Of a DNA stretch of 21,840 bases, positions 5,941-20,710 are shown one piece after another (within the stretch, counting starts at the first letter, position 1; each line of letters starts with the position of its first letter). The notes below the pieces were generated by a model. That model ran no database searches. It was not told where the DNA came from and saw only the letters and a program-made list of their open reading frames with translations. Location of the stretch: NCBI GenBank assembly GCA_028696915.1, contig JAQVGB010000007.1:1-21840 (forward strand), in the 5' to 3' direction. This DNA comes from Candidatus Dojkabacteria bacterium. Its GTDB lineage: Bacteria > Patescibacteriota > Dojkabacteria > SC72 > JAFGCJ01. Made by a program: the position numbers and the translations under genes.

Positions 5941-5972
5941 GGTCTACATTCTGCAAGACGTGGTTGATGCCT

Positions 5973-6848
5973 CTATCCGACAACTTTCCTGAGTATTTCC
6001 TCAAGATCGTCCGAGCTTCGGTATCGTATGACAATCTTTCCGCCGCCTTTCAGTTTCATGATCGAAAGTTTCATGCCCAGATGCCGTCTGAGGCGTTCCT
6101 CTATTTCAAGTGACCTCTTATCGAGCCTGCGTGGTCTTCCTTTTGCTGCTTGCTCTATCCCCTGAACGATCGTTCTGACAAGCTCTTCTGTCGCATGGAC
6201 AGATAGATTTTTGCGAATTACCGCGTCCGCGGCTGCAATCATGGAGTCAGGATCCTGGATCCCAAGTAGTGCACGTGCATGGCCTTCCGAGAGAATGTTG
6301 TCTAGCACCAGTTGTTTGATCTTTTCAGGGAGTTTGAGCAAACGGATCTTGTTGACGACGGCGACCCTGCTGAGACCGACTTTTTTGGCAATGTCAGATT
6401 GGGACAGAGAGAACTTTTCGCTGAGCTGTTTGAAGGCAAGTGCCTCTTCAATCGGGTTCAGGTCCTGCCGCTGGACATTTTCGATAACAGCCATCTCGAG
6501 CATTTGCTTCGGAGATGCCTCACGGACAACAACCGGGACGGTTCTTTGCTGAGATAATTGAGCTGCACGAAGCCGGCGTTCTCCGGCGATGAGCACGAAA
6601 TCCTTGTCACCTCGTTTTGTGACGATAAGTGGTTGAATAATGCCATTTTCTCTAATCGAGTCGGCTATCTCGATCAAATCTTCAGGCTTAATGGTCATCC
6701 GGGGCTGGTGCGGGTTGGGCGAGATATACTCGATCGGGAGGTTGGGAATATAGCCCTTTGACGACATATCGAGCGATTCTGTCGATATCAGTGCGGAAAG
6801 TCCCTTTCCAAGGGGGCTGGTTTTGACTGCGTCCGAGGAAGTGTTCAC
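5973..6848 (-). CDS. parB: Chromosome partitioning protein ParB/Spo0J (GTG start)
   Basis: ParB box LIAGERRLRAA, HTH segment SQSDIAKKVGLSRVAVVNKIRLLKLP, and a position immediately downstream of parA. Confidence 0.9.
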   Translation of the reverse strand: MNTSSDAVKTSPLGKGLSALISTESLDMSSKGYIPNLPIEYISPNPHQPRMTIKPEDLIEIADSIRENGIIQPLIVTKRGDKDFVLIAGERRLRAAQLSQQRTVPVVVREASPKQMLEMAVIENVQRQDLNPIEEALAFKQLSEKFSLSQSDIAKKVGLSRVAVVNKIRLLKLPEKIKQLVLDNILSEGHARALLGIQDPDSMIAAADAVIRKNLSVHATEELVRTIVQGIEQAAKGRPRRLDKRSLEIEERLRRHLGMKLSIMKLKGGGKIVIRYRSSDDLEEILRKVVG

Positions 6849-6869
6849 CGGTTCTATTGTACCTGATTT

Positions 6870-7658
6870 TTAACTAAAACGTTTGGCAAATTCCTTTGCC
6901 AGATCCTTATACGCGCGGGCGCCTGAAGAAAGCGTATCGTATATGTCGATCGGCTTTCCGTGGGACGGCGCTTCCGAAAGCTTCACATTTCGGGGGATAA
7001 TGGTCTCGAACACCAATCCCTTGAAGAATTCCTGTATCTCGCAAGCGACACTCGCGGATAATTTTGTACGAGAATCGAACATAGTCAGTATAACACCTTT
7101 GATCTCCAATGTCGGATTGAGGTTTTTTACAATGCGGACAGTTTCGATCAACTGTCCCAATCCCTCAAGCGCAAAATACTCACATTGAATGGGAACAATG
7201 ATCATGTCGGCCGCCACAAATGCGTTGATGGTCAGCAGTCCAAGTGACGGCGGACAGTCGATAAACACGTAATCGAATGGTTCATTAAATTCGCGTAGGG
7301 CGTTACGCAGAATGCTTTCTCTGGCAAGCTGGCTGACGAGCTCGATCTCGGCGCCCGCAAGCGAAAGATGTGCAGGAACGAGGTAGAGGTTCTTGATTGC
7401 TGTCGGAACAAACACCGAGGACAGCTTTTTGTTTTCGGTCAACACATCGTAAATGCTTGGGTAAGGCGATTCCGTAGACTGCGACCAGTCGACTTTGTTG
7501 ACTTTCTCGTAGCCGATTCCGGAAGTCAGGTTCGACTGCGGGTCAAGATCGATCAGTAGTACTTTTTTGCCAAGGTGGGTAAGTGCAGAACCGAGATTAA
7601 TGGCGGTCGTAGTCTTACCTACGCCTCCCTTCTGGTTTGCAATAACAAAGGTCTGCAT
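6870..7658 (-). CDS. parA: Chromosome partitioning ATPase ParA/Soj
   Basis: Deviant Walker A NQKGGVGKTTT, DLDPQ, and Walker B-like VFIDCPPSLG, with parB adjacent. Confidence 0.9.
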   Translation of the reverse strand: MQTFVIANQKGGVGKTTTAINLGSALTHLGKKVLLIDLDPQSNLTSGIGYEKVNKVDWSQSTESPYPSIYDVLTENKKLSSVFVPTAIKNLYLVPAHLSLAGAEIELVSQLARESILRNALREFNEPFDYVFIDCPPSLGLLTINAFVAADMIIVPIQCEYFALEGLGQLIETVRIVKNLNPTLEIKGVILTMFDSRTKLSASVACEIQEFFKGLVFETIIPRNVKLSEAPSHGKPIDIYDTLSSGARAYKDLAKEFAKRFS

Positions 7659-8476: not shown

Positions 8477-8549
8477 TGCCGCTACGGGGAATCGAACCCC
8501 GGTTTACGGGATGAAAACCCGTTGTCCTAGGCCACTAGACGATAGCGGC
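8477..8549 (-). tRNA. tRNA-Glu (anticodon UUC), CCA not encoded
   Basis: The reverse complement folds as a cloverleaf. The acceptor is GCCGCTA/TAGCGGC, the anticodon stem ACGGG/CCCGT with loop TTTTCAT, and the T arm CGGGG-TTCGATT-CCCCG. The D arm is identical in pattern to bacterial tRNA-Glu. Confidence 0.9.
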
Positions 8550-8575
8550 GTACATTTCCACACGATTGTACACGC

Positions 8576-8803
8576 TCATGCCCGTTTTGAAAACTCTTCC
8601 GCTTCGCGGAAAGTGGCGCGGCGGTAGCAGTCTGCGGTCCGGTCATACACAAACATACGTCTGCAGGAGCAGATCACAATTTCTTCTGTACCGTTGAATG
8701 CATGCTTCTGCATTTTATCAAGCGGTGCGGTGCACCCGGGACACAGTCGTTTCGCAAGCAGTACACGCTGGAACGGTGCGATAAGATTTTTAAATGTTTT
8801 CAT
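8576..8803 (-). CDS. Small hypothetical zinc-ribbon protein (75 aa from ATG 8803; TTG at 8818 is possible)
   Basis: Contains CPGC...(20 aa)...CSC, giving four Cys in two knuckles. The ORF lies between tRNA-Leu and tRNA-Glu on the same strand. No recognisable family. Confidence 0.4.
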   Translation of the reverse strand: MKTFKNLIAPFQRVLLAKRLCPGCTAPLDKMQKHAFNGTEEIVICSCRRMFVYDRTADCYRRATFREAEEFSKRA

Positions 8804-8880
8804 GACGTTTCGGTTCAAATGTTCAAGTTATGCTCGTCTTCTTCGTGTTCTTTTCGACGTATTTGTTCTCCAGGTCAGCT

Positions 8881-8909
8881 ATTATATGACAAAATGATGT
8901 CGTTGTGAT
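8881..8909 (-). promoter_or_regulatory. Candidate sigma70 promoter for the zinc-ribbon ORF / tRNA-Glu / lepB-parAB transcription unit
   Basis: On the minus strand: ATCACA (8904-8909), 17 nt spacer, then a perfect TATAAT (8881-8886). Confidence 0.35.
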
Positions 8910-8917
8910 CATCGATG

Positions 8918-9002
8918 TGCCGAGGAGAGGACTCGAACCTCCACAGGATATGCTCCCACATGGTCCTAAGCCATGCGCGTCTGCCAGTTCCGCCACCTCG
9001 GC
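8918..9002 (-). tRNA. tRNA-Leu (anticodon UAG), long variable arm, CCA not encoded
   Basis: Reverse complement GCCGAGGTGGCGGAACTGGCAGACGCGCATGGCTTAGGACCATGTGGGAGCATATCCTGTGGAGGTTCGAGTCCTCTCCTCGGCA. The acceptor is 7 bp, the anticodon loop is CTTAGGA, and the extra arm is class II. Confidence 0.9.
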
Positions 9003-9048
9003 AGGGTAAAATCCTCAAATTTCAGGAGGTGAACGTAATGCAGGAAGA

Positions 9049-10176
9049 TTATATCACCATTTCGCTGTCGTTGATGACCCGTACGACCGTTTTCTTCCGT
9101 TCCAGTTTGGTAACCGGCTGTTCATCTTCGGGCTTGGGAAGCCGGTAGTACGTTGATCGTCCCCCGTGATGTACTGAAACAAGCTTTTTCCGGACAAGTT
9201 CATTGAGGTCACGGTAGGCAGTCATGGTTGAAACACCCGTCATCCCCACATACTCGCGGCGGGAGATCCTGGGGTGATACTGGAGGTGCCGTACGAGCCT
9301 CTGTTGGCGTGGGTTGAGCACGAGCAGCTGTTCTCTTTGCAGGTGAACTTTCTTTTCTGCCGCTCGCACGACATCGTTTTTTAATGAAACCATATCGGAC
9401 GAAATTCCGTTGAGGTAGGTCTCGATCCATCCGGTCACATCCGCAGTTGTCCAGTCGATTGATGACAGCGCGTCAATAAATTGTTCTTTATGATTGAGGA
9501 AACTTCCAGCGACCGGGAAAAGGCCCTTGAGCGAGAGTCGCGAGCGCTCCATGAGCAGTTCCGTAGAAGCAAGCATGGTGATGAAATTGCCGGACATGAA
9601 CGGATACCACCGATACAACTCCGATATGACACAGGCACACTTGATTGCGGGGTGCACCTGATGCCGCTTTTCCCCGAACCAATGGAGCACATCCGTGAAG
9701 TACCGCTGAGGATCTATCGAAAGCCTCGGCAGTTCCCTGTCTTTCAGAAGAGGGTCCGCCGGATCGCTTACGGTGTCCATAATCGACCTGAACCGCCCGC
9801 TTTCCCACGATTCGACGATCGTGTTGAGAAGAAGCTTGTTTAAATGAAGAAGCAGTGATGCTGAGAGCGATAGGTACGGGTCATTGCTTGATGCATACAT
9901 GAAATCACTGGTGCTCCGGTAGTTTGCAAGAATGACTGATTTTGAACCGGGCAGTGGAATATCTCTTCCCGAGGCAAGGTTTGAGGCATCAGGCTGAGAG
10001 AGTGGAATATTCAGCTGTGTGGCAAGCGCTGAAATGTTGCTTGATGCCTGCTGGTGTAGAAGCGATTTTTGCACTTTCGCCGAAAGTGGCGTGCTTCGGA
10101 TATCGTGGATTGCAAGCTCGAGACGGATCAAGTGCGAAACGATTGTGTTCGTCAGAGAGAATGTTGGAACGTACAT
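9049..10176 (-). CDS. Fic/DOC-fold protein with degenerate catalytic motif and a C-terminal winged-HTH
   Basis: At the position of the Fic signature HPFxxGNGRxxR the protein reads YPFMSGNFITML (nt 9571-9606). The C-terminus LNPRQQRLVRHLQYHPRISRREYVGMTGVSTMTAYRDLNELVRKKLV resembles the wHTH found on long Fic proteins. Confidence 0.6.
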   Translation of the reverse strand: MYVPTFSLTNTIVSHLIRLELAIHDIRSTPLSAKVQKSLLHQQASSNISALATQLNIPLSQPDASNLASGRDIPLPGSKSVILANYRSTSDFMYASSNDPYLSLSASLLLHLNKLLLNTIVESWESGRFRSIMDTVSDPADPLLKDRELPRLSIDPQRYFTDVLHWFGEKRHQVHPAIKCACVISELYRWYPFMSGNFITMLASTELLMERSRLSLKGLFPVAGSFLNHKEQFIDALSSIDWTTADVTGWIETYLNGISSDMVSLKNDVVRAAEKKVHLQREQLLVLNPRQQRLVRHLQYHPRISRREYVGMTGVSTMTAYRDLNELVRKKLVSVHHGGRSTYYRLPKPEDEQPVTKLERKKTVVRVINDSEMVI

Positions 10177-10221
10177 TTTTGAGCTCTCAAGTAGAATCTG
10201 GTCCTGGAGCAGTCAGTACTA

Positions 10222-10294
10222 AGCTGGCGGTGAGGATCGAACTCACGACCTACGCTTTACGAAAGCGTCGCTCTACCAACTGAGCTACGCCAGC
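10222..10294 (-). tRNA. tRNA-Thr (anticodon CGU), CCA not encoded
   Basis: Reverse complement GCTGGCGTAGCTCAGTTGGTAGAGCGACGCTTTCGTAAAGCGTAGGTCGTGAGTTCGATCCTCACCGCCAGCT. The anticodon loop is TTCGTAA. Confidence 0.9.
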
Positions 10295-10494
10295 TTTTTG
10301 TGACCACAAGCCTGGTTATAGTTAGGGCATCGTGGTCAAATGAAGGGCCGATTCGTATCGGATTTATATCACAGACGAGATGGCATGTCCACGGGGATAA
10401 GGTAGCAGAACGCCCTCGCAGATGCTTCGCATCTACTCGTTCTTCACGGTCATCCAGTCCAGCGTCCTCTCCTCACGGTGTGAGGAAATGCCGC

Positions 10495-10570
<76 letters not shown>

Positions 10571-10599
10571 ATCGGTCCTGAGGCCAAGAAATCAACTTT

Positions 10600-11430
10600 C
10601 TAAAGGATTTTCTTCTTGTCCAGATTATAATAGATTCCGCCCAGCATCGCACTATGAACGAGAAATCCTGCGGTCTCAACCGTTGGAGAAACGATAGGGC
10701 CACAGCAACACAGCACGACCGTCAATATGCCGAAGAGTACATTAATGACCAGCATGATGACAGCAACCCCAAGAAACTGCGGCCATGCATGCGTGATGAC
10801 CGTCATGATCGTGGACGGTGACATAAGCTTCCCGAGATCCCGATATTTCAGGTACACATACATGAGTGCCGGAATGACCAGGATGGCAACAGCAAACATA
10901 ACCACGCTGAGAATGATCATGAGAAAGACAAACGCGGCGATCAGGAGCGCCGTTATCCATGTGGAATCAATAGAAGACAGCAGAACGATCGGAAGAGCGG
11001 CGGAGATCATGGTGATCAGAACGAGCGGGCCAATCAACAGAAACTGTGCTCCAATGTATACAAGTCCGGTTGTCAACGTTTTTCCTAGGTTTGAATGCTC
11101 CGGAAGGACATCCAGATCATCCTTCTTGACCGCAGAAGTCCTGATTGAGTCAGCGGTCTCCAAAAAGTAGCCTCTGACATACAGCATCACCGGAAGCAAA
11201 ATGAGAGAGCTCAATGTCGGCATAGCGATCGCAAGAAGCGGGAATGCGTCATTGGAGAATCCCCGAGGAAAGGCAAAACTGGAAAACCTGAAGATGTCGG
11301 TGGAGGTTAGTGCCGCATTGATCCCCAGGGAGAAGATTGTATTAAAGAAAAAAATAGCCCAAATAACCCCGGCTTTCGGCAGAAGTCTGCGGTCGTTGAA
11401 GACGCGCGGTATAAAATTGAGAAATTCCAT
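10600..11430 (-). CDS. Hypothetical polytopic integral membrane protein
   Basis: 276 aa with at least six long hydrophobic segments. No catalytic motif is recognisable. The antisense ORFs in the track (10727-11170, 10742-10960) are shadows. Confidence 0.6.
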   Translation of the reverse strand: MEFLNFIPRVFNDRRLLPKAGVIWAIFFFNTIFSLGINAALTSTDIFRFSSFAFPRGFSNDAFPLLAIAMPTLSSLILLPVMLYVRGYFLETADSIRTSAVKKDDLDVLPEHSNLGKTLTTGLVYIGAQFLLIGPLVLITMISAALPIVLLSSIDSTWITALLIAAFVFLMIILSVVMFAVAILVIPALMYVYLKYRDLGKLMSPSTIMTVITHAWPQFLGVAVIMLVINVLFGILTVVLCCCGPIVSPTVETAGFLVHSAMLGGIYYNLDKKKIL

Positions 11431-11437
11431 GGTTTCG

Positions 11438-11446
11438 ATTGTAGCA
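11438..11446 (-). promoter_or_regulatory. Extended -10 element (TGCTACAAT on the minus strand) 7 nt upstream of the membrane-protein ATG
   Basis: The reverse complement of 11431-11446 reads TGCTACAATCGAAACC and is followed by the ATG at 11430. There is no Shine-Dalgarno. Confidence 0.35.
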
Positions 11447-11457
11447 TACTTGTTTGA

Positions 11458-11486
11458 TTGACTGTACCCGGATTATTAGATATAGT
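11458..11486 (+). promoter_or_regulatory. Candidate sigma70 promoter for tRNA-Asp
   Basis: TTGACT (11458-11463), 17 nt spacer, TATAGT (11481-11486), located 53 nt upstream of the tRNA 5' end. Confidence 0.4.
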
Positions 11487-11539
11487 TATGCCGCTAACCT
11501 CTAGTTGAGGCGATCATTAAAACATAATGAAGAATTTGT

Positions 11540-11613
11540 GGGGCGGTAGTTCAGTTGGCTAGAACATCGCACTGTCACTGCGAAGGTCGCGGGTTCGAGC
11601 CCCGTCCGCCCCG
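11540..11613 (+). tRNA. tRNA-Asp (anticodon GUC), CCA not encoded (followed by TAG)
   Basis: 74 nt cloverleaf. The acceptor is GGGGCGG/CCGCCCC with discriminator G, the D arm GTTC-AGTTGGCTA-GAAC, the anticodon arm TCGCA-CTGTCAC-TGCGA, and the T arm GCGGG-TTCGAGC-CCCGT. Confidence 0.92.
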
Positions 11614-11730
11614 TAGGCAATCAAAAATCGTCCGAAAGGGCGATTTTTTGTTGCCTCGCTGGAAGGACGAAGGGCGAGAAGCAAGGTCCCACGAAACGAA
11701 GTGTAGTGGGGAGCCCCGTCCGCCCCGCCA
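11612..11730 (+). repeat. Junction module alpha, copy 1 (119 nt), ending in the 13-mer GTCCGCCCCGCCA (11718-11730)
   Basis: 116/119 identical to 14821-14939. It begins right at the discriminator of tRNA-Asp. The last 20 nt, GAGCCCCGTCCGCCCCGCCA, repeat the tRNA T-loop/acceptor 3' strand and add CCA. Confidence 0.95.
11623..11649 (+). terminator. Intrinsic-terminator-like hairpin downstream of tRNA-Asp
   Basis: AAAAATCGTCC-GAAA-GGGCGATTTTT has an 11 bp stem with one G-U pair, a GNRA-type loop and a T tract. It is nested in an outer inverted repeat AGGCAA (11615-11620) / TTGCCT (11652-11657). Confidence 0.65.
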
Positions 11731-11893
11731 TTTTCAACATGTTCCAACAAGACCCGTCCACTATCTCTAGGAATCCCTTGGTTGCTTCGTAAAATCGCCC
11801 CTAAATTTAAGTATTTCAATTTCACATCCTGGTGGATGAAAATATCCATATTTTAACCAGTTTTTACTTCCCCACGGTTCGAAGATAGAATCC
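11731..11893 (+). repeat. Cassette left arm L, copy 1 (upstream of the ABC gene)
   Basis: Colinear with 13858-14024 in four blocks. The blocks are a 36-nt block TTTTCAACATGTTCCAACAAGACCCGTCCACTATCT (34/36), CCTGGTGGATGAAAA (15/15), CAGTTTTTA (9/9) and CGGTTCGAAGA (11/11). They sit at matching distances from the CCA (97/99 nt and 144/145 nt). Confidence 0.85.
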
Positions 11894-11936
11894 TTTTGTG
11901 ATATACTTTTCAAATAATTACAATAGATATAACGAC

Positions 11937-13715
11937 ATGCTTAAAGAAATAATAAAAGGATTAAAGTACGGACTTAATACACACAAATTCCTTATTACCT
12001 CGCAATGGATTCTTAACACCATTAACCAAACAACACCGCTATTTTTTGCAATCATCTGGGCAAAACTAATAGATACAGCAATAGATGGGATTCAGAATAA
12101 CAACCTCACCTTTTCCTTAATGATAGTTCCCTTCATCCTGTATGGCGTCATAGAAATAGCTAGATCTCTTACAGGGAAATTAGATGATGCATTACAAACA
12201 CTGGCCTATGACAAATTAGAGTTAAAAGTTCATACAGATGTAGTTAAGAAATATTCATCACTTGATATACAAAGCCTAGAAGATCCAGAAGTTAACAGAC
12301 TATTTCAAGTTATAAGGGAGTCATATGAATGGAGAATTAGACATTTAATATTTACATTCGGTAAAGCACTAAGGGCATTTGTAATACTTGGTATTGGTTC
12401 ATTTATACTTTTCAAAATCTCTCCTCTTGTTATGCTCATTATAATTATATCCTCTATACCATCCGTATTAGGAAAAATGAAGTTTGGCTCTATTGATTGG
12501 GGAATATGGCATGCAGATGCAGATAAGTTTAGAAAATTTAACCTAACTAAAGACTTTTTACTTAACAAAGATAATCTTCTGGAGGCAAATATAAACAATA
12601 TATCTCCACATCTCGTTGAAGTAATAAAAGAAATACTGAATTCATATCATCAGAAGAGAAAGCCAGTAATTAAAAAGCGTTTTTTTGTTCTAATTTTAAC
12701 AGACTTAATAGGAATAGTAGGTTCAATATATTCCGTATATCTACTGATTACTCTAGCTTTAACTGGCTCTATCTCAATTGGAAGTTTAATCTTAGGATCA
12801 TCTATCTTCCTTTCATTTTCTGGTGGACTAGGATCTTTCTTGTATGAAATTACAGAATTATATGATTCAGGATTATTCATGAGAGATTTCAACTCTTTTA
12901 TGAATCTTAAGCCTAAAATATCTAAAGGGAATATTCTGTTAGAAAAACTTGATACTCCTCCTACTATAGAGTTTAAGAACGTATCCTTTACATACCCCAA
13001 TACAGACAAAATTGTATTAAAGGATATAGACCTTGTTATTAAACCTGGTATGAAAGTAGCATTAGTAGGTGAAAATGGAGTAGGAAAAACAACCTTAATT
13101 AAACTACTCGCTCGATTCTATACACTGAACAATGGAATGATCGAAATTAATGGTCAAAATCTCGCAGATATTGATACAGAAAGCTGGGAACAGAACTTAG
13201 GTTTACTCACACAACATTTTAATACATACCCTGCATTTAGTGTTGAGGAGAATATATATTTTGGAGATGTATCCAAGGAGAGGAGAAGTAAGAGTATAGA
13301 AAGTGCTGCTGATAAAGCAAATGTTACAAGCTTTATTAACAAATATAAAAACAAATTTAAACAGATTCTTTCTATACAATTTAAGGATGGAATAGATCCA
13401 TCATGGGGACAATGGCAAAGATTAGGAATAGCTAGAACATTATATAGGGATGCACCCGTAGTAATATTTGATGAACCCACATCCTCTATAGATGCTCAAG
13501 CAGAGTATGAGATATTTGAAAACATTAATAGTTCTACTAAAGATAAAACCGTTATATATGTATCACATAGGTATTCTACAGTAAGGAATGCTGACTTAAT
13601 ATGCGTTTTAAAGGATGGAAGAATTGTTGAGTCAGGAAACCATCAAGATTTAATGAGTATTAATGGTGAGTATGCTAAGAACTTTAAATTACAAGCATCG
13701 GGGTATTCAGATTGA
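11937..13715 (+). CDS. ABC exporter, fused permease-ATPase (type I half-transporter) with an atypical signature motif
   Basis: The N-terminal ~330 aa carry about 6 hydrophobic segments. The NBD has Walker A GENGVGKTT, a Q-loop region, Walker B VVIFDEPTSSID and H-loop YVSHR. The signature reads PSWGQWQR instead of LSGGQRQR. ATG 11937 is preferred; the track start at GTG 11898 is possible. The gene is very AT-rich. Confidence 0.85.
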   Translation: MLKEIIKGLKYGLNTHKFLITSQWILNTINQTTPLFFAIIWAKLIDTAIDGIQNNNLTFSLMIVPFILYGVIEIARSLTGKLDDALQTLAYDKLELKVHTDVVKKYSSLDIQSLEDPEVNRLFQVIRESYEWRIRHLIFTFGKALRAFVILGIGSFILFKISPLVMLIIIISSIPSVLGKMKFGSIDWGIWHADADKFRKFNLTKDFLLNKDNLLEANINNISPHLVEVIKEILNSYHQKRKPVIKKRFFVLILTDLIGIVGSIYSVYLLITLALTGSISIGSLILGSSIFLSFSGGLGSFLYEITELYDSGLFMRDFNSFMNLKPKISKGNILLEKLDTPPTIEFKNVSFTYPNTDKIVLKDIDLVIKPGMKVALVGENGVGKTTLIKLLARFYTLNNGMIEINGQNLADIDTESWEQNLGLLTQHFNTYPAFSVEENIYFGDVSKERRSKSIESAADKANVTSFINKYKNKFKQILSIQFKDGIDPSWGQWQRLGIARTLYRDAPVVIFDEPTSSIDAQAEYEIFENINSSTKDKTVIYVSHRYSTVRNADLICVLKDGRIVESGNHQDLMSINGEYAKNFKLQASGYSD

Positions 13716-13759
13716 GATACTTTCCCCTTTTTTATACTGTCTTATTTGTCTCATTTTGT

Positions 13760-13781
13760 GGTCCAGACTCGTATGTCCCGT
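13760..13781 (+). repeat. Degenerate tRNA 3'-end-like cassette right end, copy 1
   Basis: GGTCCAGACTCGTATGTCCCGT matches GGTTCCAGACGTGTATGTCCCGT at 14801-14823. Both align loosely (about 13-15 of 22) to the tRNA-Asp T-loop/acceptor GGTTCGAGCCCCGTCCGCCCCG. Confidence 0.7.
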
Positions 13782-13857
13782 TGTCCACGAATGTAATGAG
13801 TGGTAACAACGGGCGATCCCGCAATCGCGAAGCGAGCTGCGGTGGTCCGCCCCGCCA
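13777..13857 (+). repeat. Junction module beta, copy 1: hairpin, 35-nt conserved body and 13-mer (13845-13857)
   Basis: The hairpin is CCCGTTGT-CCAC...GTGG-ta-ACAACGGG (13777-13813). AACAACGGGCGATCCCGCAATCGCGAAGCGAGCTG (13805-13839) is identical to 20847-20881. The module ends in GTCCGCCCCGCCA. Confidence 0.9.
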
Positions 13858-14024
13858 TTTTCAATATGTTCCAACAAGACCCGTGCACTATCTTTTAAAA
13901 CCCTTATGGGAATTGAGTTATTAAGACTCTAAAAAGTGAAAGTTTTAAAAGTAAGGCCTGGTGGATGAAAAAGATCAAAAAAAAGCAGTTTTTAAGAGCT
14001 CTCGGTTCGAAGAAAAACTAATCC
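13858..14024 (+). repeat. Cassette left arm L, copy 2 (here abutting the 3' end of the minus-strand S51 peptidase gene)
   Basis: See 11731-11893: the same four colinear blocks at the same spacing from the CCA. Confidence 0.85.
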
Positions 14025-14059
14025 TATATACACAAACAAAAAATCATTACGGATAAGTA

Positions 14060-14701
14060 TTACCTCAATTTTGTTTCACTTATAATAACTTCCCCATCTC
14101 TTAAAGGCTTATAAGGTATGCCTTCATGCTTAAAGTACTTTATCGCCTCATTAATCATTTCTGATTCAGGATGATCAGAGTCAAAATGTGGTGCTATTGA
14201 ATAATCTATTAAACCAATTCCCTCCCAAACAATCTCTTTTCCATAGACTTCGGTTACTTTCTCTGGTTCGTCAGCTAATTCAATACCCTTTAAAGAAGGT
14301 GCTAATACACATGCTCCTGCAGAAAAACCTGCGTAAAGGAATTCTGTTTTATCACTCCTGTTTTTATATTCAATTAAAATCTTGTCGAGACCACTTTCTG
14401 CCATTGCACTACGAAGTAAAAAAGCATTTCCACCAATAACCCATAAACCTCCAAATTCGTCCAATTTTGATCTTAATCCTTCCATATCCCCAAAGTAATC
14501 TCTTAGATCTAAGAGCTCCGGTTCAAATCCAAGATCTTTTAATCCATCAATTTGTTTCTGTTCAGAAGCCAATCTTCTTTCGGTGTCATTACTAAAATCT
14601 AGAGCATTAGCTATTAGTGCAATTCTTTTATTTGAAGAAGCTAACTGAGCCAATTTATTAGGATCATCTCCAAATTTGTATGAAGACAAATATAATTTCA
14701 T
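14060..14701 (-). CDS. Peptidase family S51 (dipeptidase E-like)
   Basis: VIGGNAFLL (compare GGGNTF), nucleophile elbow YAGFSAGACV (compare GWSAGA) and IAPHFDSD (compare NPHF). Length is 213 aa. A strong Shine-Dalgarno AGGAGA lies 6 nt before the ATG. Confidence 0.8.
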   Translation of the reverse strand: MKLYLSSYKFGDDPNKLAQLASSNKRIALIANALDFSNDTERRLASEQKQIDGLKDLGFEPELLDLRDYFGDMEGLRSKLDEFGGLWVIGGNAFLLRSAMAESGLDKILIEYKNRSDKTEFLYAGFSAGACVLAPSLKGIELADEPEKVTEVYGKEIVWEGIGLIDYSIAPHFDSDHPESEMINEAIKYFKHEGIPYKPLRDGEVIISETKLR

Positions 14702-14800
14702 AAGAATTCTCCTATTTAAATTACTAACTTTATCTTACTAAAAAATTCTCGAGAAAACCATGTAAATCCATCCTACCTAATTCATACCTTTTCCACTCTT

Positions 14801-14823
14801 GGTTCCAGACGTGTATGTCCCGT
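14801..14823 (+). repeat. Degenerate tRNA 3'-end-like cassette right end, copy 2
   Basis: GGTTCCAGACGTGTATGTCCCGT runs directly into alpha copy 2, exactly as the genuine tRNA-Asp 3' end runs into alpha copy 1. Confidence 0.7.
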
Positions 14824-14939
14824 AGGCAATCAAAAATCGTCCGAAAGGGCGATTTTTTGTTGCCTCGCTGGAAGGACGAAGGGCGAGAAGCACGGTCCCA
14901 CGAAACGAAGTGTAGTGGAAAGCCCCGTCCGCCCCGCCA
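14821..14939 (+). repeat. Junction module alpha, copy 2 (119 nt), ending in the 13-mer (14927-14939)
   Basis: 116/119 identical to 11612-11730. The three differences are A/C at 14893 and GG/AA at 14919-14920. Confidence 0.95.
14832..14858 (+). terminator. Second copy of the terminator-like hairpin
   Basis: Identical to 11623-11649 (AAAAATCGTCCGAAAGGGCGATTTTT plus T tract). Confidence 0.55.
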
Positions 14940-15233
14940 GACGGAACGGTGCTTATAGGTAAACAGTAAATAATGTCAGGACAATGAAAGTTGGCACCTC
15001 CTCAGTTCGAACCTCACACTATGGGCAAATAAGGCGTCCGGAACAGATTTCATAGGATAATCCATTTTCCTTATTATTAAAGCAAAAGTAGGGGTAATTA
15101 TGCGTTCGAACCTAACAATCTAAAAATATGAAAAAATGTAGGTTGCATGTGATAACCAAGAATATCAAGAGAACCTGGATGTATTTGCTAAAACTTTGAA
15201 CATAATTGCGGTGAATATTGCGAAATTGAGCCC

Positions 15234-16433
15234 TTAGATGGGCTCTGCAACCGTTTCTTCCAGTACACGTTCGAGATCTTTTGTCTGAGCCTCTATTGAT
15301 TTACTTGCCCAGTCTCGTTCCTGATACATTTTGAGCCCCATCCATGGTTTACCAAGTTCGTCAAGGCAGAGTGCAAGTAGTGCCAGTCGTTCTTCTCGAG
15401 GTGTAGGGGTACTTAATCTTCCTCCCCCACGAATTGCCTTCATTTGATATGTATACGCTGTGTAATCAATATGTAATTGCATAAGAAACTCAAACGTTTT
15501 TTCGTCAATAATTTTATATTCCATCGCTCTTCTCCATAACGCGACAGAGATAGCTTCCTGTTCCATTTGATGACTAGTGACATTATAAAGACCCTGAATT
15601 TCACGAGTTTTATCTAAAAACTCTGAATCTGGTTCAATATCAAATGGATATAACGGTATCCCTTTTTGATCAATACCGTACAATACGTTTCTATGTTGTT
15701 TTTCCAGTTGCGCTATTGTTTCTTTGTATTGGGTTTCTCTTTTTTGAAAATCAGTATCTGACTCACCTAGCTTTCTTACTGGTTCTTTTGGGCGATTGAC
15801 ATCAAGATATCGGTCCCAGAGTTTCCCTGCATCGTGGGTGCCAGCCCAAACAATAAAAGCGCGGCGCTCTTCTTCGGAAATATGCAAAGATTCAAACAAG
15901 TGCCGAGAAAACCGGAATATATTACGACGCACTGCCAGCATGTCCAGTTCTGATTGGGTTAATTGTTCCCATCCGCTTTGATCCAGAATTCTTGAAATAG
16001 TCTCTGATAAGTCGTCCACTGTCGCAACGTATGCCTCACTGTGTCCTTCAATGGGTTGAAAGTAGTGGTATGCTGATGGCGGTATTTCATTTCCAGAAAG
16101 AGCTTGAAAAACAGAAAGAAGTGCTCGCATATGGTCTGTCACATCGTATCCATGAAATGGACACACCTGATCAACCAGTAATCCTCCATCTGGCCTTTTT
16201 CTAAGAGAAACCGTAGATGTAACTAATGCACGACGATCGTCTGTTGCTTCAGATCCAACAAGATCAGGATTAGTTTCAATTAGATTAGTAGCATCTACAG
16301 CAAGTCTCGACCAGACAGTTGGTTGATCAAGCTGCCCCATAAGATACCCAATTCCATCACATATCGACTGAGTGCGCGCTTCAATCGCTTGGTTCATAAT
16401 TTCATTACCTTCACCATCTGGAGCATTTGCCAT
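15234..16433 (-). CDS. HD-domain metal-dependent phosphohydrolase-like protein (399 aa from ATG 16433)
   Basis: FSRHLFESLHISEEERRAFIVWAGTHDAGK (nt 15822-15902) fits the HD-domain pattern H...(~20 aa)...LHDxGK. The rest of the protein is unassignable by eye. The internal Met (MANAPDG) is preferred as start because it removes the overlap with the divergent kinase gene. Confidence 0.5.
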   Translation of the reverse strand: MANAPDGEGNEIMNQAIEARTQSICDGIGYLMGQLDQPTVWSRLAVDATNLIETNPDLVGSEATDDRRALVTSTVSLRKRPDGGLLVDQVCPFHGYDVTDHMRALLSVFQALSGNEIPPSAYHYFQPIEGHSEAYVATVDDLSETISRILDQSGWEQLTQSELDMLAVRRNIFRFSRHLFESLHISEEERRAFIVWAGTHDAGKLWDRYLDVNRPKEPVRKLGESDTDFQKRETQYKETIAQLEKQHRNVLYGIDQKGIPLYPFDIEPDSEFLDKTREIQGLYNVTSHQMEQEAISVALWRRAMEYKIIDEKTFEFLMQLHIDYTAYTYQMKAIRGGGRLSTPTPREERLALLALCLDELGKPWMGLKMYQERDWASKSIEAQTKDLERVLEETVAEPI

Positions 16434-16446
16434 ATGAGACAATTTC

Positions 16447-16474
16447 TTGTAAAAACTGTGATACCTGCTATTAT
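16447..16474 (+). promoter_or_regulatory. Candidate promoter in the 74-nt divergent intergenic region, oriented toward the kinase gene
   Basis: TTGTAA (16447-16452), 16 nt spacer, TATTAT (16469-16474). Confidence 0.3.
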
Positions 16475-16507
16475 AGTAATCACATAAGTAAAAAACAAGC
16501 ATGTATT

Positions 16508-17458
16508 ATGAATAATCTTTCCTTTGGTGATGTCGTCCAGAAGCTCCAGGAGGATTACGCGGATCTTCAGAAATACGACCTAACGGTACAAAAGCAATTT
16601 GTTTCAAAAACAGGACGTAAGTACAATACTTTTCTTGTTGATGCACCTGATTCCCCATATGGTATATTTGTAGCCAAAAGCTTTTGGCATGAGAACCAGA
16701 ACCTTGATGATGAAGTTCGCATTATGAATTTTCTCTCTGATAAAGAGGTATTTGTGCCAAAGCTGTTGTTTCCATACAAAGCAGGGAATACGTTTATTGT
16801 GATGGAATATATCAAAGGAACTGATGCTGCGGAATTGCTTCAAAATCCAGAACATGCACTAAATGCATTTAGAAGTATTGGTACATCCTTGAGTAAAGTA
16901 TATGAAGTGTCTGTCCCGGCTTTTAACAAATTCTGGGAAAACGATCCAACAGTATGGTCAGAGTATGTTCAGGAAAAGTTTGATGAACGGTTAACAAAAG
17001 CCATTGATAAAGATCTTTGGGATCAAATTCGGTCGATTTATCAAAAAGGTACAGAAGTTATAGCGGAAGATGCAAAGTCTGGATCAGTTTTGATACACAG
17101 AGATATTTATGCTGACAACTTTATTATTGAAGAGTCGACCGGGCGGGCAATTTTAATTGACTTCGCTATGGCTCGCGGAGGCAGGCCCTTTTATGATCTT
17201 GCCAAGTTTTACATCATCGATCTAGCGAGACATTCTGAAGGTCAAAATGCTTTTCTGGAGGGACTGAATATTGCTGAAAGAAGTGAAGCAAACTTTTATA
17301 TGCTCCGATCCTATATCCTCATTGAGCTCCTTGGCATGATTAACTTTTATATGAGTATTAATCAAACTGAGCCCTTAAAACACGCACAAACATGTCTGAG
17401 AGAATTAGTAACAGAAAAGGGAAGTTTCCATGAGTTAGTGAAAGCATATGTAACGTAA
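16508..17458 (+). CDS. APH/choline-kinase-family small-molecule kinase (aminoglycoside phosphotransferase fold)
   Basis: Catalytic loop LIHRDIYADNFII (HxDxxxxN), metal-binding ILIDFAMA (the DFG equivalent), and an N-lobe with VAKSF containing a Lys. ATG 16508 (MNNLSFGD) is preferred over the track's TTG at 16427. Confidence 0.75.
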   Translation: MNNLSFGDVVQKLQEDYADLQKYDLTVQKQFVSKTGRKYNTFLVDAPDSPYGIFVAKSFWHENQNLDDEVRIMNFLSDKEVFVPKLLFPYKAGNTFIVMEYIKGTDAAELLQNPEHALNAFRSIGTSLSKVYEVSVPAFNKFWENDPTVWSEYVQEKFDERLTKAIDKDLWDQIRSIYQKGTEVIAEDAKSGSVLIHRDIYADNFIIEESTGRAILIDFAMARGGRPFYDLAKFYIIDLARHSEGQNAFLEGLNIAERSEANFYMLRSYILIELLGMINFYMSINQTEPLKHAQTCLRELVTEKGSFHELVKAYVT

Positions 17459-17566
17459 ACTAACCTTGTCTTATAAAGGATATTTATATCCGGACCTCAA
17501 ACGACAACTCCGGTACCTGCACTTTAATTCTCGCATCCCGCATCACCTCCATTAGAGTTTTGTTCT

Positions 17567-17579
17567 GTCCGCCCCGCCA
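17567..17579 (+). repeat. Solo copy of the tRNA-Asp 3'-terminus 13-mer GTCCGCCCCGCCA
   Basis: Exact 13/13 match in the same orientation, located in the 165-nt gap between the kinase gene and ORF374. It has no alpha or beta body upstream. Confidence 0.9.
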
Positions 17580-17623
17580 GCCTCTTTTCGGTCATCTGTT
17601 AAAAGCCAACAAACATTGATATA

Positions 17624-18748
17624 TTGATAGAGTTAAATTCGGCTTTGCAGTTGATGTCTGGAGAATCACCAGTGCATGATGATGTACTAGCCCCCGCTGG
17701 TGTTGCGGATGTAGCAGATCCGTTACCCCAAGATCCCGATTTTCAGCGTCTTCATGCACAGTATCTAGAGTATCTACAAAACGAGCCTGTTACCAAGGTA
17801 AAGCTTCCGCTATACCACGGAACTGGCTCATATGCACTGAGACGGATCTTGCATGATGGATTTGTCCCACGCTCTTCCAGTGCGTCATTGACGGGAGATA
17901 GTGCTTCAAGCCCCTGGACACCGGAAGAGGGATCCGCGTTCACGTCATTTGCACCGGGTACTTCTGAAGGAGCCGTCTTTGCACGGGGGTATGCATACCA
18001 ATCAAGTAGAGAGTGGGGATTAAGCTACACGGCAGATGAAGCTCTAGGTGCTTCGTTTCTTGAGCGAGTGCAAACCAAATTCTTTCCAGATATGAATGCG
18101 GCAGTGGAAGCTGAGCACAAGCGTGTTATTGGCCTAGGTAACAATGATCCTGAAGATGAAGTTCGTGAGGCTATTAAAATGGAGATGGACATTCAGAGGG
18201 AGCGGATGCAAACCCCTGGAGCTTTCGTATTCAGTCCCGATTCTGCTCGAGAGATGATAGGTGAATTACAGAGGCTTCAAAATGGAGAGATTGAAGATAC
18301 TGTTGCTGCAGAGAGACTGTTAAGGGCAAACAACGTCCTCTGGCGACGAGGGGCTAGCGTTGTTAGACAGACCTTGCAAACGCTATCTGATCCGCAGAGT
18401 TGGCTTACAAAACGAATAGAGGAACTTAAGGCTTCATATGCCCAGATGATTATAGCGTATGAGAATTTGTCAGATGATGAACGAAATGAGCTGGAACACC
18501 AATTTCCCTGCATGGTCTTGGTAGAAGGTGATGGTATGAAGCTCGGGAATAAGGCAACGGCCTTTGTCCCCGAAGTTCAGGCGCTAGAAAGAACCGAACC
18601 GCAGAGGGTAAGAGAGATTTCGGTGCCAGAGTCAAAAGTGGAAACGGTACAGAAGTGGATCGAGGCTGAAGGACTAAAAGGTGTTATAGTTACCCCTCTG
18701 GAGTTTTCAGAAGTTAAGGATGTTCTTGATTCTGTCGAAAAGGAATAG
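17624..18748 (+). CDS. Hypothetical protein with a PARP/ADP-ribosyltransferase-like N-terminal NAD-binding motif (tentative)
   Basis: LPLYHGTGSYALRRILHDGFVP (nt 17804-17869) resembles the ART/PARP/Tpt1 motif hhHG(S/T)x7-8ILxxG(F/L). A possible second-strand motif is EGAVFARGYAYQSS (compare GxGxYFA..S.S). The central region is helical and charged. The start is TTG 17624 or ATG 17654. Confidence 0.35.
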   Translation: MIELNSALQLMSGESPVHDDVLAPAGVADVADPLPQDPDFQRLHAQYLEYLQNEPVTKVKLPLYHGTGSYALRRILHDGFVPRSSSASLTGDSASSPWTPEEGSAFTSFAPGTSEGAVFARGYAYQSSREWGLSYTADEALGASFLERVQTKFFPDMNAAVEAEHKRVIGLGNNDPEDEVREAIKMEMDIQRERMQTPGAFVFSPDSAREMIGELQRLQNGEIEDTVAAERLLRANNVLWRRGASVVRQTLQTLSDPQSWLTKRIEELKASYAQMIIAYENLSDDERNELEHQFPCMVLVEGDGMKLGNKATAFVPEVQALERTEPQRVREISVPESKVETVQKWIEAEGLKGVIVTPLEFSEVKDVLDSVEKE

Positions 18749-18804
18749 AGGTCGATGAAGGTTTGAGTAGCCATAGATCTCCAAACTCGTCCCATGCCTT
18801 CCGC

Positions 18805-18822
18805 CAGCAGCGCTTTCTGCTG
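18805..18822 (+). other. Perfect 6-bp hairpin downstream of ORF374
   Basis: CAGCAG-cgcttt-CTGCTG has no T tract. It immediately follows a degenerate 13-mer-like string, GTCCCATGCCTTCCGCCAG (18789-18807). Confidence 0.35.
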
Positions 18823-18848
18823 ACTCCTCCATACGCTATACTTGCTTC

Positions 18849-19295
18849 ATGTATCAGATTCCGGAGGACAAGGGATTCCTCATAGCAGTAAAAGCACTAA
18901 TAATCAACTCGTCAGGTGAAGTTCTTCTCCTTAAAGTGAATAGTGGCCTGCGTGATTCAGAGAGATGGGATCTACCCGGCGGTTTAATGGAATATGACGA
19001 TACGGTTGAGAGCAGATTACAGAAAGAAGTGATTGAGGAAACCGGCATTAAAATCAAAGATCCGAAGCTAATTGCTGTTTCTGAAACGATATTTGAAGAT
19101 TTCGTTCTTGACGAAAATAACGTAAAAGACATGAAAGTTGTAGTTATTGGTTTTGAATTGCATATAGGCGCAACAAAGGAGACTATCAGATTATCAGAGG
19201 AACATGCAGGTTATGCTTGGTATAGAATGGAAGATTTGAATACCATTGAGCTCTCCAAACCTTCCAAGGCAATCATCACAAAGATTCCTAAGTAA
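18849..19295 (+). CDS. Nudix hydrolase
   Basis: Nudix box G-LMEYD-D-TVESRLQ-KEVIEETGI (nt 18978-19049) fits Gx5Ex7REUxEExGU with conservative E-to-D and R-to-K changes. Length is 148 aa. TATACT lies 6 nt before the ATG. Confidence 0.8.
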   Translation: MYQIPEDKGFLIAVKALIINSSGEVLLLKVNSGLRDSERWDLPGGLMEYDDTVESRLQKEVIEETGIKIKDPKLIAVSETIFEDFVLDENNVKDMKVVVIGFELHIGATKETIRLSEEHAGYAWYRMEDLNTIELSKPSKAIITKIPK

Positions 19296-19301
19296 CATCG
19301 T

Positions 19302-19329
19302 CTCGGTTCGATACTGTGCCACGCGGCCA
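19302..19329 (+). other. Fragment resembling a different tRNA 3' end (T-loop to CCA)
   Basis: CTCGG-TTCGATA-CTGTG-CCACGCG-G-CCA has exactly the T-loop-to-CCA spacing of a tRNA. It is followed by GTAGGCAA, the same octamer that follows the tRNA-Asp 3' end. There is no 5' half, and the T stem pairs at only 4 of 5 positions. Confidence 0.5.
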
Positions 19330-19331
19330 GT

Positions 19332-19359
19332 AGGCAAAAGCACGCAGCTTTTGTATCCT
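19332..19359 (+). other. Hairpin analogous to the alpha-module hairpin
   Basis: AGG-CAAAAGC-acgca-GCTTTTG-tat-CCT then CG. It has the same flanks (GTAGGCAA...TTTTGT..CCTCG) as 11613-11659 but a different stem and loop sequence. Confidence 0.5.
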
Positions 19360-19381
19360 CGAGCAATGTGAAGTCAATATC

Positions 19382-20710
19382 TCATAGGTTAACCGTCACG
19401 TCATCCGGTTCAATATCTCCACACATTGCCAAATACCAGGAATTGCTTCCAAAATACTTTTGCGCAGCCCGTTGTGTCGCCTCTGGAGTACAACGTAATA
19501 TAGCCTCTGAGTATGCTTTAATTCCGAAGGGGCCTCCTACACCTCTTTCCCAGTCTGAGTATTGTTCAACCCAACTCCTGGAATCTTGAAGGCGCATTCT
19601 TAATGATTTAATCTTCCTCGTCTGCCCGAATACTAACTCTTCTTGCGAAAGGCCACTGGTAACGACGCGTCTGATTTCTCCGGCAAGAACATCAAGCACC
19701 TCCTGCACATTTTGCCTTGAAGTCGAAGTTTTAATAAGAAATCGCCCTGAGTCGCTATTTCTTTGAGCACCAGCACTTGCCTCATAGGTCAGTCCTCTTT
19801 CATATCTTAGTAAGCGTTTTAACGAAGATGCCCTTCCTCCTCCGAGCGATTCTGCAATCATTTCTAACGCCAGGTTGTCTGCCTCGCTACTAGTTTGAAA
19901 TCTAAATCCGAAAAGAATATGAACTTGTTCAAGACCAGGATATCTTTCCACAAGAATCTGCCCTCCGATAGGTAGAGGCAATTCTTCGGCGGCTTTCAGA
20001 GGAACGCTTGCTGGGACCAATAAACTCTGCTCTGCGTGATCTTTTAGATCGTGAACCTGTGTTCCACCGCAGGCTACAAATAACAGTCGCCCAGATGTTA
20101 CGACTTCTTTGTAGAAACGAATCAAGTCATCTCTTGAAATTGACCTAATTGATTCCGGGGTTCCAAGAATCGATCTTCCAAGATCTGTCCCTCCAAAGAA
20201 AAGCCGTGGATACAACTCCATGAGCATTTTTTCTGGACTTGATACTTTTGCTCCGAGTTCTCGTAAAATTGCCCCTCTTTCCATCTCCACTGTTCGAGGA
20301 TCAAACAGTGGATCGAGTAACATTTCGTGCATCAAGTCGACACATACTCCAAGATCGTCAGGATCCGCTACCGTGGAATTGATACTCAACCGTTCCCACC
20401 CGGTTGTTGCGCCAATTTCTCCTCCATAGCGTTCAATGTATGCAGCTAGTCTGTCTTTAGTAGGAAAACGAGGTGTTCCCGCGAGGAGCATGTGCTCAAG
20501 AAAATGTGCTGTTCCTTCTTGTCCCGGTGGATCAAAACGTGCCCCACCAATGGAAACAGCGCGAAGATGAATAGGTGCCCGAGGTCGCTCCAAAACAACC
20601 AGTTTTGAACCATTTGATAGGAACGTTTCCTCCCGTCTCGTTCCCAGGTCTTCAGCAGATAAAGAATTGTGGGTCGGATCGGTATCAACCTCATTGGGTT
20701 TGTCAATCAT
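19382..20710 (-). CDS. M16-family (pitrilysin/insulinase-like) zinc metallopeptidase
   Basis: Inverted zincin motif GTAHFLEHMLL (HxxEH) near the N-terminus, a downstream Glu region (ERGAILRE), and a two-domain length of 442 aa. Confidence 0.85.
   Translation of the reverse strand: MIDKPNEVDTDPTHNSLSAEDLGTRREETFLSNGSKLVVLERPRAPIHLRAVSIGGARFDPPGQEGTAHFLEHMLLAGTPRFPTKDRLAAYIERYGGEIGATTGWERLSINSTVADPDDLGVCVDLMHEMLLDPLFDPRTVEMERGAILRELGAKVSSPEKMLMELYPRLFFGGTDLGRSILGTPESIRSISRDDLIRFYKEVVTSGRLLFVACGGTQVHDLKDHAEQSLLVPASVPLKAAEELPLPIGGQILVERYPGLEQVHILFGFRFQTSSEADNLALEMIAESLGGGRASSLKRLLRYERGLTYEASAGAQRNSDSGRFLIKTSTSRQNVQEVLDVLAGEIRRVVTSGLSQEELVFGQTRKIKSLRMRLQDSRSWVEQYSDWERGVGGPFGIKAYSEAILRCTPEATQRAAQKYFGSNSWYLAMCGDIEPDDVTVNL

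Follow-up and report, generated by a model that had tools for sequence, protein, structure and literature searches.

What kind of element leaves neighbouring DNA segments that begin and end alike while the genes between those ends are unrelated? The question is raised by a contig of a Candidatus Dojkabacteria bacterium (JAQVGB010000007.1 of assembly GCA_028696915.1, positions 1 to 21,840, hereafter the window), where two such segments, termed here cassettes 1 and 2, lie side by side downstream of a tRNA-Asp gene. The two cassettes are probably recombinase-less members of a family of tandem, tRNA-anchored cassettes that belongs to serine-recombinase elements of Patescibacteria.

Each cassette opens with a CCA (11728-11730 and 13855-13857) followed directly by a left arm of about 165 nt, which starts at 11731 and 13858, respectively. 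An nhmmer profile of the arm recovers both on the + strand, the CCA included (11728-11895, E = 9.8e-45; 13855-14022, E = 2.2e-48). The arms (11731-11895 and 13858-14022) are colinear and identical at 122 of 165 nt, with an alignment score of 58 against -6.7±4.7 (maximum 10.5) for 300 shuffles, and their first 36 nt match at 34 positions. The conserved blocks described in an earlier note on this DNA were recovered, and their distances from the CCA, given there as the same, are nearly equal: 98 and 100 nt for the CCTGGTGGATGAAAA block, 145 and 146 nt for the CGGTTCGAAGA block. A further near-invariant block, GGTTCGAAG, had been taken for the remnant of a T-loop, a descent that is unproven. The cargo of cassette 1 is an ABC exporter of 592 aa with fused membrane and ATPase parts (11937-13715, +; Pfam ABC_tran, 1.8e-29), and that of cassette 2 an S51 peptidase of 213 aa (14060-14701, -; Pfam, 4.5e-18). 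On their right side both cassettes terminate in GGT(T)CCAGACnnGTATGTCCCG. Cassette 1 ends with a right arm and a tRNA-3'-like boundary repeat (TTTTTATACTGTCTTATTTGTCTCATTTT...GGTCCAGACTCGTATGTCCCG, 13721-13780, +; GGTCCAGACTCGTATGTCCCG itself at 13760-13780), and the same pair precedes many arms in other loci. Cassette 2 ends with the boundary repeat GGTTCCAGACGTGTATGTCCCG (14801-14822, +), and an identical repeat, with CCA after it, bounds the cassettes of other loci (L001-L010). Two cassettes with shared left and right arms and unrelated cargo on opposite strands, as first proposed, are thus present with all their features. The right-end string, read at that time as a diverged T-loop and acceptor, does resemble a tRNA 3' end; however it is not a decayed copy of a tRNA of this genome. 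Among the boundary repeats of low-GC donor arrays it is the commonest, reading GGTTCCAGACGTGTATGTCCCGCCA there.

Both cassettes are real but represent only part of the structure, which continues to position 20898. The whole interval between the tRNA-Asp gene and a dus gene is a 9.3-kb array (11614-20898), and cassettes 1 and 2 are two of its units. The 13-mer GTCCGCCCCGCCA, which combines the acceptor 3' strand with the discriminator base and CCA, occurs in five exact copies in the window, all downstream of tRNA-Asp (copy ends 11730, 13857, 14939, 17579 and 20898), a count equalled by none of 100 shuffles. The anchoring tRNA-Asp(GTC) (11540-11613, +; Rfam tRNA, 69.9 bits; also called by ARAGORN, one base too long at both ends relative to Rfam) has a 3' end reading ...CCGCCCCG with no encoded CCA, and its terminus ...GTTCGAGCCCCGTCCGCCCCG is directly followed by TAGGCAATC. 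An encoded CCA is absent from four of the five tRNA genes of the window (Glu, Leu, Thr and Asp, 8477-11613) and present only in tRNA-Gly. All nine junctions of the window have CCCG at their left, and their right side is either CCA (six cases) or the first base of one of two spacer units, called A and B. The GC content is about 32% in cassettes 1 and 2, 40% in a third segment (14937-17576) and 46% in a fourth (17577-20822), compared with about 51% in the host.

The A and B units are of host type and each is present twice. Copy 1 of the A unit (11614-11727, +; repeat D1, 139 nt, 93% to 14801-14939; RNA fold -50.6 kcal/mol, z = -3.8) includes a strong hairpin of terminator type (11615-11657) and ends with a 17-nt copy of the tRNA-Asp 3' end (GAGCCCCGTCCGCCCCG, 11711-11727). 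Copy 2 (14823-14936, +; D1 repeat, alignment A2) ends with AAGCCCCGTCCGCCCCG. A 25-mer of the A unit had no match in a metagenome scan. Copy 1 of the B unit (13781-13854, +; repeat D5, 35 nt 100% identical to 20847-20881) is a hairpin-forming spacer whose final GTCCGCCCCG (13845-13854) is taken into the hairpin (-30.5 kcal/mol, z = -2.2). Copy 2 (20823-20895; D5 repeat) is followed by the last GTCCGCCCCG plus CCA, and together they form the end of the array (20823-20898, +). A 139-aa open reading frame (20703-21122, -) spanning this last tRNA-like repeat and the B unit is probably no gene. A similar layout is found at a tRNA-Ser in another locus, L051, which mirrors the window with a tRNA without CCA, a unit of about 160 nt, a partial tRNA end plus CCA and an arm. 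An GCGAAGCGAGC-like motif is common to the spacer units that precede host-type boundary repeats (13781-13854, 20823-20895 and L051 141-303). In the folds of these spacers, which have modest z-scores (-1.2 to -2.6), the tRNA-like 3' strand is paired to a complementary stretch upstream; the GCCA-type tail is free in both B units of the window and paired in L051. The first junction also shows strain-level variation: in a locus of the same species from another sample (L056, 1-260), tRNA-Asp, A unit and core are identical to those of the window and a different arm variant (TATTCCAACGGTTGCTAC...) follows the CCA.

In public sequences the arm profile identified 306 copies in 128 loci, nearly all from Candidatus Dojkabacteria or other Patescibacteria. 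Loci L001-L010 and L081-L153 stem from anaerobic-digester and activated-sludge samples. Within any one locus all copies have the same orientation, and their spacing has a median of 1163 bp (quartiles 928 and 2008; 177 spacings). A two-block pattern of the arm gave 44 loci in a one-genome-per-species collection, nearly all Candidatus Dojkabacteria or metagenome-assembled genomes (MAGs) labelled Saccharibacteria, 73 loci in metagenomes and a single locus among viral contigs (L060), which looks like a fragment of a chromosomal array. The boundary repeat had no match in viral contigs, 19 matches of a 17-mer being attributable to chance. Since arms occur in 128 other loci, a local duplication followed by gene replacement is rejected, and the diversity of the cargo, found in both orientations, supports the mobilisable cassette family put forward in the earlier note. 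The arm cannot be the untranslated region of one gene family either, as it accompanies 243 clusters of cargo in both orientations. All arrays with a visible start begin at a genuine tRNA-Asp(GTC) or, in fewer cases, at a tRNA-Ser, i.e. at one attachment site formed by the 3' end of a conserved chromosomal gene. The arms themselves are not confined to tRNA-Asp-like ends, a restriction that had been suggested as a check, since they also follow tRNA-Ser and several tRNA-3'-like boundary repeats. Genes upstream of the array tRNA in other loci include tsaD, tsaC/tsaE and that of a GGDEF protein.

The cassettes share a common plan: CCA and the ~165-nt left arm, then most often a single gene, oriented either way, and at the end about 25 nt imitating the T-loop and the 3' acceptor strand of a tRNA. 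The 395 complete open reading frames found as cargo fall into 243 clusters; 136 are oriented with the array and 259 (66%) opposite to it. A set of 150 representatives corresponds to 128 Pfam families, among them short-chain dehydrogenases/reductases (SDRs), alpha/beta hydrolases, NUDIX proteins, methyltransferases, radical SAM, GNAT, HD and HAD proteins and tyrosyl-tRNA synthetase (TyrRS). Cassettes are reshuffled between loci: 79 clusters are present in at least two loci, and 40 of these have at least two different neighbours. The S51 peptidase illustrates this. The identical protein is encoded on 18 other contigs, and its cassette has three different upstream neighbours (in L001, in L005 and L009, and in L008) and two downstream neighbours. 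In L001 it belongs to an array on the opposite strand with six copies of ...CCAGACGTGTATGTCCCGCCA, each followed by a whole or partial arm-like sequence. The "right end" in the window is therefore the boundary repeat of a foreign low-GC array. Cassette 2 (13851-14822) matches L001 and others at 98% identity over 975 bp, a match that ends at the boundary repeats, while cassette 1 (11711-13797) is 84.6% identical over 2099 bp to an array cassette of a Dojkabacteria MAG (L028). The host of the window, annotated as Candidatus Dojkabacteria, is a divergent lineage of about 51% GC. Because its FtsW shares only 40-56% identity with the FtsW proteins of other members, cassettes 1 and 2 are likely to derive from distant, low-GC Dojkabacteria arrays. 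With their 32% GC, they stand among three further units bearing the host's own tRNA-Asp end.

Some cargo is elaborate. In L001 (10952-12487, -), and also in L002, L003 and L131, one cassette combines the TyrRS gene with a tRNA-Tyr whose CCA is encoded and with a T-box leader (Rfam, 103 bits), i.e. a complete aminoacylation set (compare L128 5807-5890). Archaeal-type TyrRS and tRNA-Tyr of CPR bacteria are the subject of a separate paper (PMC5370408). In L130, a gene for the large chain of RuBisCO (5484-7028, -; Pfam, 9.7e-86) lies between two arm-bounded junctions of a tRNA-Asp array and behaves as a cassette.

The boundaries of the cassettes are precise. The CCA stands at the expected place in 210 of 215 unique arm junctions; the four bases before it are CCCG in 141 and TCCG in 50 (191 together). 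Direct repeats of the attachment core are found at each cassette boundary, as with the five 13-mers of the window. The sequences to the left of the CCA belong to a few families, namely a true tRNA-Asp or tRNA-Ser end, GGTTCCAGACGTGTATGTCCCG, CGTTCGAGTCCYGTCCAYYCCG and GGATACCATTCCATACCTTCCG. Each family of boundary repeats has its own upstream right arm, and any arm type may come next. This free pairing places the point of reassortment at the CCG|CCA boundary or directly beside it. Where donor-type ends meet host units in the window, cassette 1 with B (after 13780) and cassette 2 with A (after 14822), the two sides share only CCCG, which disfavors simple homologous exchange at these joins. The position of the junction is narrowed to within or next to CCCG. 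In other loci, an encoded CCA is also missing from the tRNA-Leu, Val, Tyr and Ser genes that have no array behind them, whereas each array-anchoring tRNA reads ...CCGCCA and continues into the arm. Since the non-anchoring genes mostly lack it, the CCA seems to belong to the incoming DNA.

A recombinase is physically linked to the arms. A tblastn search from a fragment in L043 led to a conserved protein of 433 aa (~435 aa), encoded downstream of the arms and in every case antiparallel to the array (L043, L107, where it covers 5222-6523, L108, L118, L130 and L144). Its Pfam domains (Resolvase, Recombinase and Zn_ribbon_recom) are those of a large serine recombinase. Such a gene was also found in or beside the array in L154, L156 and L161, and degraded pieces of it persist in L031, L044, L051 and L101. 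One to four arms separate the tRNA from the recombinase. Recombinase-less cassettes can stand in tandem with the recombinase unit: L130 has four arms and then the recombinase module, L144 two arms and then the recombinase. The family includes at least 8000 proteins below 1e-20, and those with organism names come from Patescibacteria or Dojkabacteria. The linkage extends to distant lineages. On a 724-kb Dojkabacteria contig (L154), the recombinase lies about 4.7 kb from tRNA-Asp and its arm. In two 1.1-Mb genomes of other Patescibacteria (L156 and L159), homologues 64-65% identical lie at distances of 1.5 kb and 9.7 kb from a tRNA-Ser gene; a diverged arm comes after the CCA of this tRNA and in L156 retains GGTTGCTCCAAGACCC and GGTTCTAAGG. 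In a 1.13-Mb genome (L161), nothing but the arm separates the tRNA-Ser CCA from the stop codon of the recombinase. Overall, the homologues of other Patescibacteria are found 0.26-10 kb from a tRNA-Ser with CCA and diverged arm, and the recombinase gene points toward the tRNA in L154, L156, L159 and L161. The recombinase modules next to tRNA-Asp or tRNA-Ser in these distant Patescibacteria cover 35-11308 in L154, 4187-11308 in L156, 6786-11329 in L159 and 6733-11314 in L161. The recombinase is usually preceded by genes for a ParB_N/N6_N4 methyltransferase, a protein of about 134 aa and a terminase-like protein of about 500 aa, a module which points to a phage-related integrative element.

Restriction-modification or helicase genes are often observed beside or within the recombinase module. 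An unrelated large serine recombinase of 602 aa (23% identical) is encoded in L089 (7733-9541, +), its 3' end overlapping that of a tRNA-Val gene (9512-9589, -); this tRNA-Val has a CCA while those of L015 and L035 do not.

The best reading of these observations is that the arm would be the recombinase-proximal half of the attachment site of the element and the tRNA-like repeat the other half, because the arm adjoins the recombinase in L161 and the recombinase reads toward the tRNA. A circularised cassette would then carry a junction resembling a mature tRNA 3' end (...CCG-CCA) followed by the arm. The serine recombinase, supplied in trans, would exchange strands at or within the CCCG that ends the tRNA, and the exchange between the tRNA site and the cassette site would leave the junctions ...CCCG|CCA-arm and ...GTATGTCCCG|TAGGCAATC. 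Any segment between two such junctions could be excised, reinserted or swapped, and the small cassettes may represent recombinase-less derivatives mobilised in trans. The order of the window (tRNA, A, cassette 1, B, cassette 2, A and onward) might be reached with crossovers at CCCG junctions only. One possible path would have a block inserted at tRNA|A, excised together with the A unit and re-inserted at the junction between A core and CCA.

Several observations weigh against this interpretation. Canonical large serine recombinases join only attP to attB and need about 50 bp rather than an arm of 165 nt; the remaining ~140 nt of conserved arm are unexplained by such a site, and tandem growth would require hybrid junctions to stay active, as with staphylococcal Ccr. 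Neither tblastn nor Pfam detected a recombinase of any kind in the 21.8-kb window, so that action in trans has to be assumed, and among the arrays whose downstream sequence exceeds 5 kb only about half show the recombinase. The third and fourth segments of the window show no left arm when tested for arm similarity. No excised circle or empty site was seen in the sequences examined. Finally, arms are mosaic between strains (L008 compared with L001; cassette 2 of the window compared with L001), and ordinary homologous recombination therefore also reshuffles the arrays and could explain part of the pattern.

Carried further, this last point would have the arrays built and shuffled by RecA-type homologous recombination alone, after uptake of foreign DNA, between repeats of about 190 bp made of boundary repeat and arm. 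The arms, at 75-98% identity, are long enough for such exchanges. That of the S51 cassette in L008 changes parentage about 110 nt in, that of cassette 2 in the window departs from the L001 arm only in its first ~110 nt, and most arrays show no recombinase in the available sequence. However, donor-type right ends join the host A and B units with nothing but CCCG shared, boundary-repeat families combine freely with arm types exactly at the CCA, arms truncated to 8-25 nt still stand behind intact boundary repeats, and the recombinase remains linked to the arm across distant lineages. Homologous recombination as the only process is therefore unlikely. A role for the arm as a functional small-RNA gene downstream of the tRNA, whose copies would mark cassettes by duplicating with the tRNA end, appears distinctly improbable. 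It would account for a conservation of ~165 nt, far beyond the need of a serine-recombinase half-site, for the persistence of the arm at tRNA-Asp where no further boundary repeat is found (L046, L154) and for a variable hairpin followed by a T-run, in which compensating changes were noticed by eye. Yet the arm matches no Rfam family at the gathering threshold or at E up to 10, its single-sequence folds are no better than those of shuffles (z from -1.9 to +1.2), RNAalifold proposes 7 weak pairs with no compensatory change, and the mutual information is dominated by a few sequence types.

Two other explanations start from the tRNA-like repeats. The arrays could be classic tRNA islands of a tyrosine integrase encoded elsewhere, P4-like or tycheposon-like, with the arms as arm-type binding sites and the serine recombinase as a passenger. 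Partial tRNA 3' repeats at boundaries and tandem accretion by the tRNA, both present here, are hallmarks of such islands (bioRxiv 10.1101/2020.12.28.424599), and an arm of 165 nt with several blocks resembles the attP arm of a tyrosine integrase more than a serine-recombinase site. Against this, three motif screens of all loci, about 0.75 Mb around the arms, revealed no credible tyrosine recombinase motif (H-x-x-R...H...Y); this regular-expression screen is cruder than one with hidden Markov models, so that a very divergent integrase could be missed. The only recurrent recombinase is of the serine type and directly abuts the arm in L161, and we regard a tyrosine integrase as very improbable. 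An RNA-mediated origin, in which the boundary repeats would be mature, CCA-tailed tRNA 3' ends joined by a template-switching reverse transcriptase as in Neurospora mitochondrial retroplasmids, would fit the junction lying exactly after the discriminator base, the CCA at each boundary although most tRNA genes, including the tRNA-Asp of the window, do not encode it, and the variable length of the tRNA-derived part (10, 17 or ~22 nt) with a constant end at the CCA. This origin is scarcely credible: the commonest boundary repeat matches no tRNA of the fetched loci, the CCA is more simply the first three bases of the element's arm, this arm is fixed beside the gene of a DNA recombinase (L161), and no reverse transcriptase was noticed in the arrays, where no search was aimed at one.

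The rest of the array and its surroundings can be described briefly. The third segment (14937-17576, +) starts with CCA and contains an orphan gene of 422 aa (15234-16502, -), an APH-type kinase gene (+) and a spacer ending with GTCCGCCCCG. The fourth (17577-20822, +) comprises CCA, an orphan gene of 374 aa (17624-18748, +), a NUDIX gene (+) and an M16 peptidase gene (-). An arm-like start of both segments and of the dus-side flank had been perceived by eye; it amounts to 10-13 matches out of 26 in ungapped comparison with 111 arm starts, within the random range. The two orphan proteins have no Pfam, NCBIfam or PHROG match, and the idea that they are recombinases is unsupported. Outside the window, the 422-aa protein turned up on a single contig, L011, a duplicate of the window. 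Look-ups of a gene of the window flank, of the ABC exporter and of the M16 peptidase returned only short contigs or nothing. A loose resemblance of the arm start to a dif/Xer-like site, noted by eye in an array near parAB, was dropped. Upstream of the array are housekeeping genes (class I tRNA synthetase, FtsW, L27, SpoU, ParB, ParA and signal peptidase), and just before it a gene for a Fic/DOC plus DeoR-type helix-turn-helix protein (9049-10176, -) lies between two pairs of tRNA genes. Downstream, dus begins at about 21030, some 130 nt past the last copy of GTCCGCCCCGCCA.

Arrays of this kind can be compared with several known systems; literature searches found no description of them in Patescibacteria. 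The staphylococcal cassette chromosome elements (SCC/SCCmec) are the closest functional analogue. They share with the present arrays one site at the 3' end of a conserved gene, tandem cassettes, short direct repeats, a large serine recombinase (CcrAB/CcrC in staphylococci; here seen in related loci but not in the window) and the occurrence of recombinase-less cassettes beside recombinase-bearing ones. Ccr serine recombinases mobilise tandem SCC cassettes, including ccr-less ones in trans (PMC11470126). The target is rlmH in staphylococci and a tRNA 3' end in the Patescibacteria considered here, whose cassettes are much smaller (median 1.2 kb, mostly one gene) and have an arm of ~165 nt and a tRNA-3'-mimicking repeat with CCA; their mobilisation is putative. 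Tycheposons integrate at tRNA genes and show partial tRNA end repeats, successive integrations that push older elements outward, and degraded remnants; they are several kb long and have a tyrosine recombinase in 910 of 937 cases, a minority using large serine recombinases (bioRxiv 10.1101/2020.12.28.424599). The tRNA target, partial tRNA repeats and tandem accretion are found here as well. However, the present units are mostly single-gene and without recombinase, their junction lies at the very end of the tRNA and each has a long conserved arm. Cis-mobilizable elements (CIMEs) have att sites on both sides but no recombination genes of their own and rely on a neighbouring element; the ssrA islands of Dehalococcoides, with short direct repeats and a serine recombinase, are arranged in tandem at a tRNA-like gene. 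Both consist of a few large islands or single remnants and not of many ~1-kb cassettes with a 165-nt arm.

Integrons (IntI, attI, attC) resemble the arrays in their mostly single-gene cassettes of about 1 kb, a fixed platform, diverse cargo (GNAT, NUDIX, hydrolases and many unknowns) and an order shuffled between strains. They differ in their parts. A motif screen found no IntI-type tyrosine recombinase in any locus. The imperfect palindromes of attC (57-141 nt, inverse core and core) have no counterpart here, there being no RYYYAAC/GTTRRRY pair and no R''/R' sites; when tested against an attC-like structure, the A and B units of host type fold into core-containing hairpins, though with modest z-scores. 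In contrast to integrons, cargo occurs in both orientations, the platform is a tRNA gene and the candidate recombinase stands at the far end of the array. It is conceivable, and we advance it only tentatively, that Patescibacteria possess a gene-capture platform not described before, integron-like in operation but made of other components. Its large serine recombinase, domesticated or borne by an element, would cut exactly at discriminator|CCA of tRNA-Asp or tRNA-Ser, circles would mimic a mature tRNA 3' end, one-gene cassettes (RuBisCO or the TyrRS/tRNA-Tyr/T-box set) would be exchanged across a 20% GC gap, and the arm would have a second role, for example in directionality control or as a small RNA.

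The cassette family thus probably provides the reduced genomes of Patescibacteria with an integron-like collection of genes moved by a serine recombinase. These bacteria have tiny genomes and depend on hosts, and how they gain genes is little understood; arrays of swappable single genes would be a main route of gene flow. The scale is considerable, with more than 120 loci and one cassette 98% identical across lineages of 32% and 51% GC. The metabolic and accessory cargo (SDRs, hydrolases, NUDIX proteins, methyltransferases, GNATs, aminoacyl-tRNA synthetases, RuBisCO) points to the arrays as a seat of strain-level differences. If the link to the serine recombinase is true, the system would offer a compact recombinase that naturally acts at a defined place, the end of a tRNA gene, and follows site rules unlike the textbook attP x attB. 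It would represent a second, independently built solution to the problem that integrons solve.

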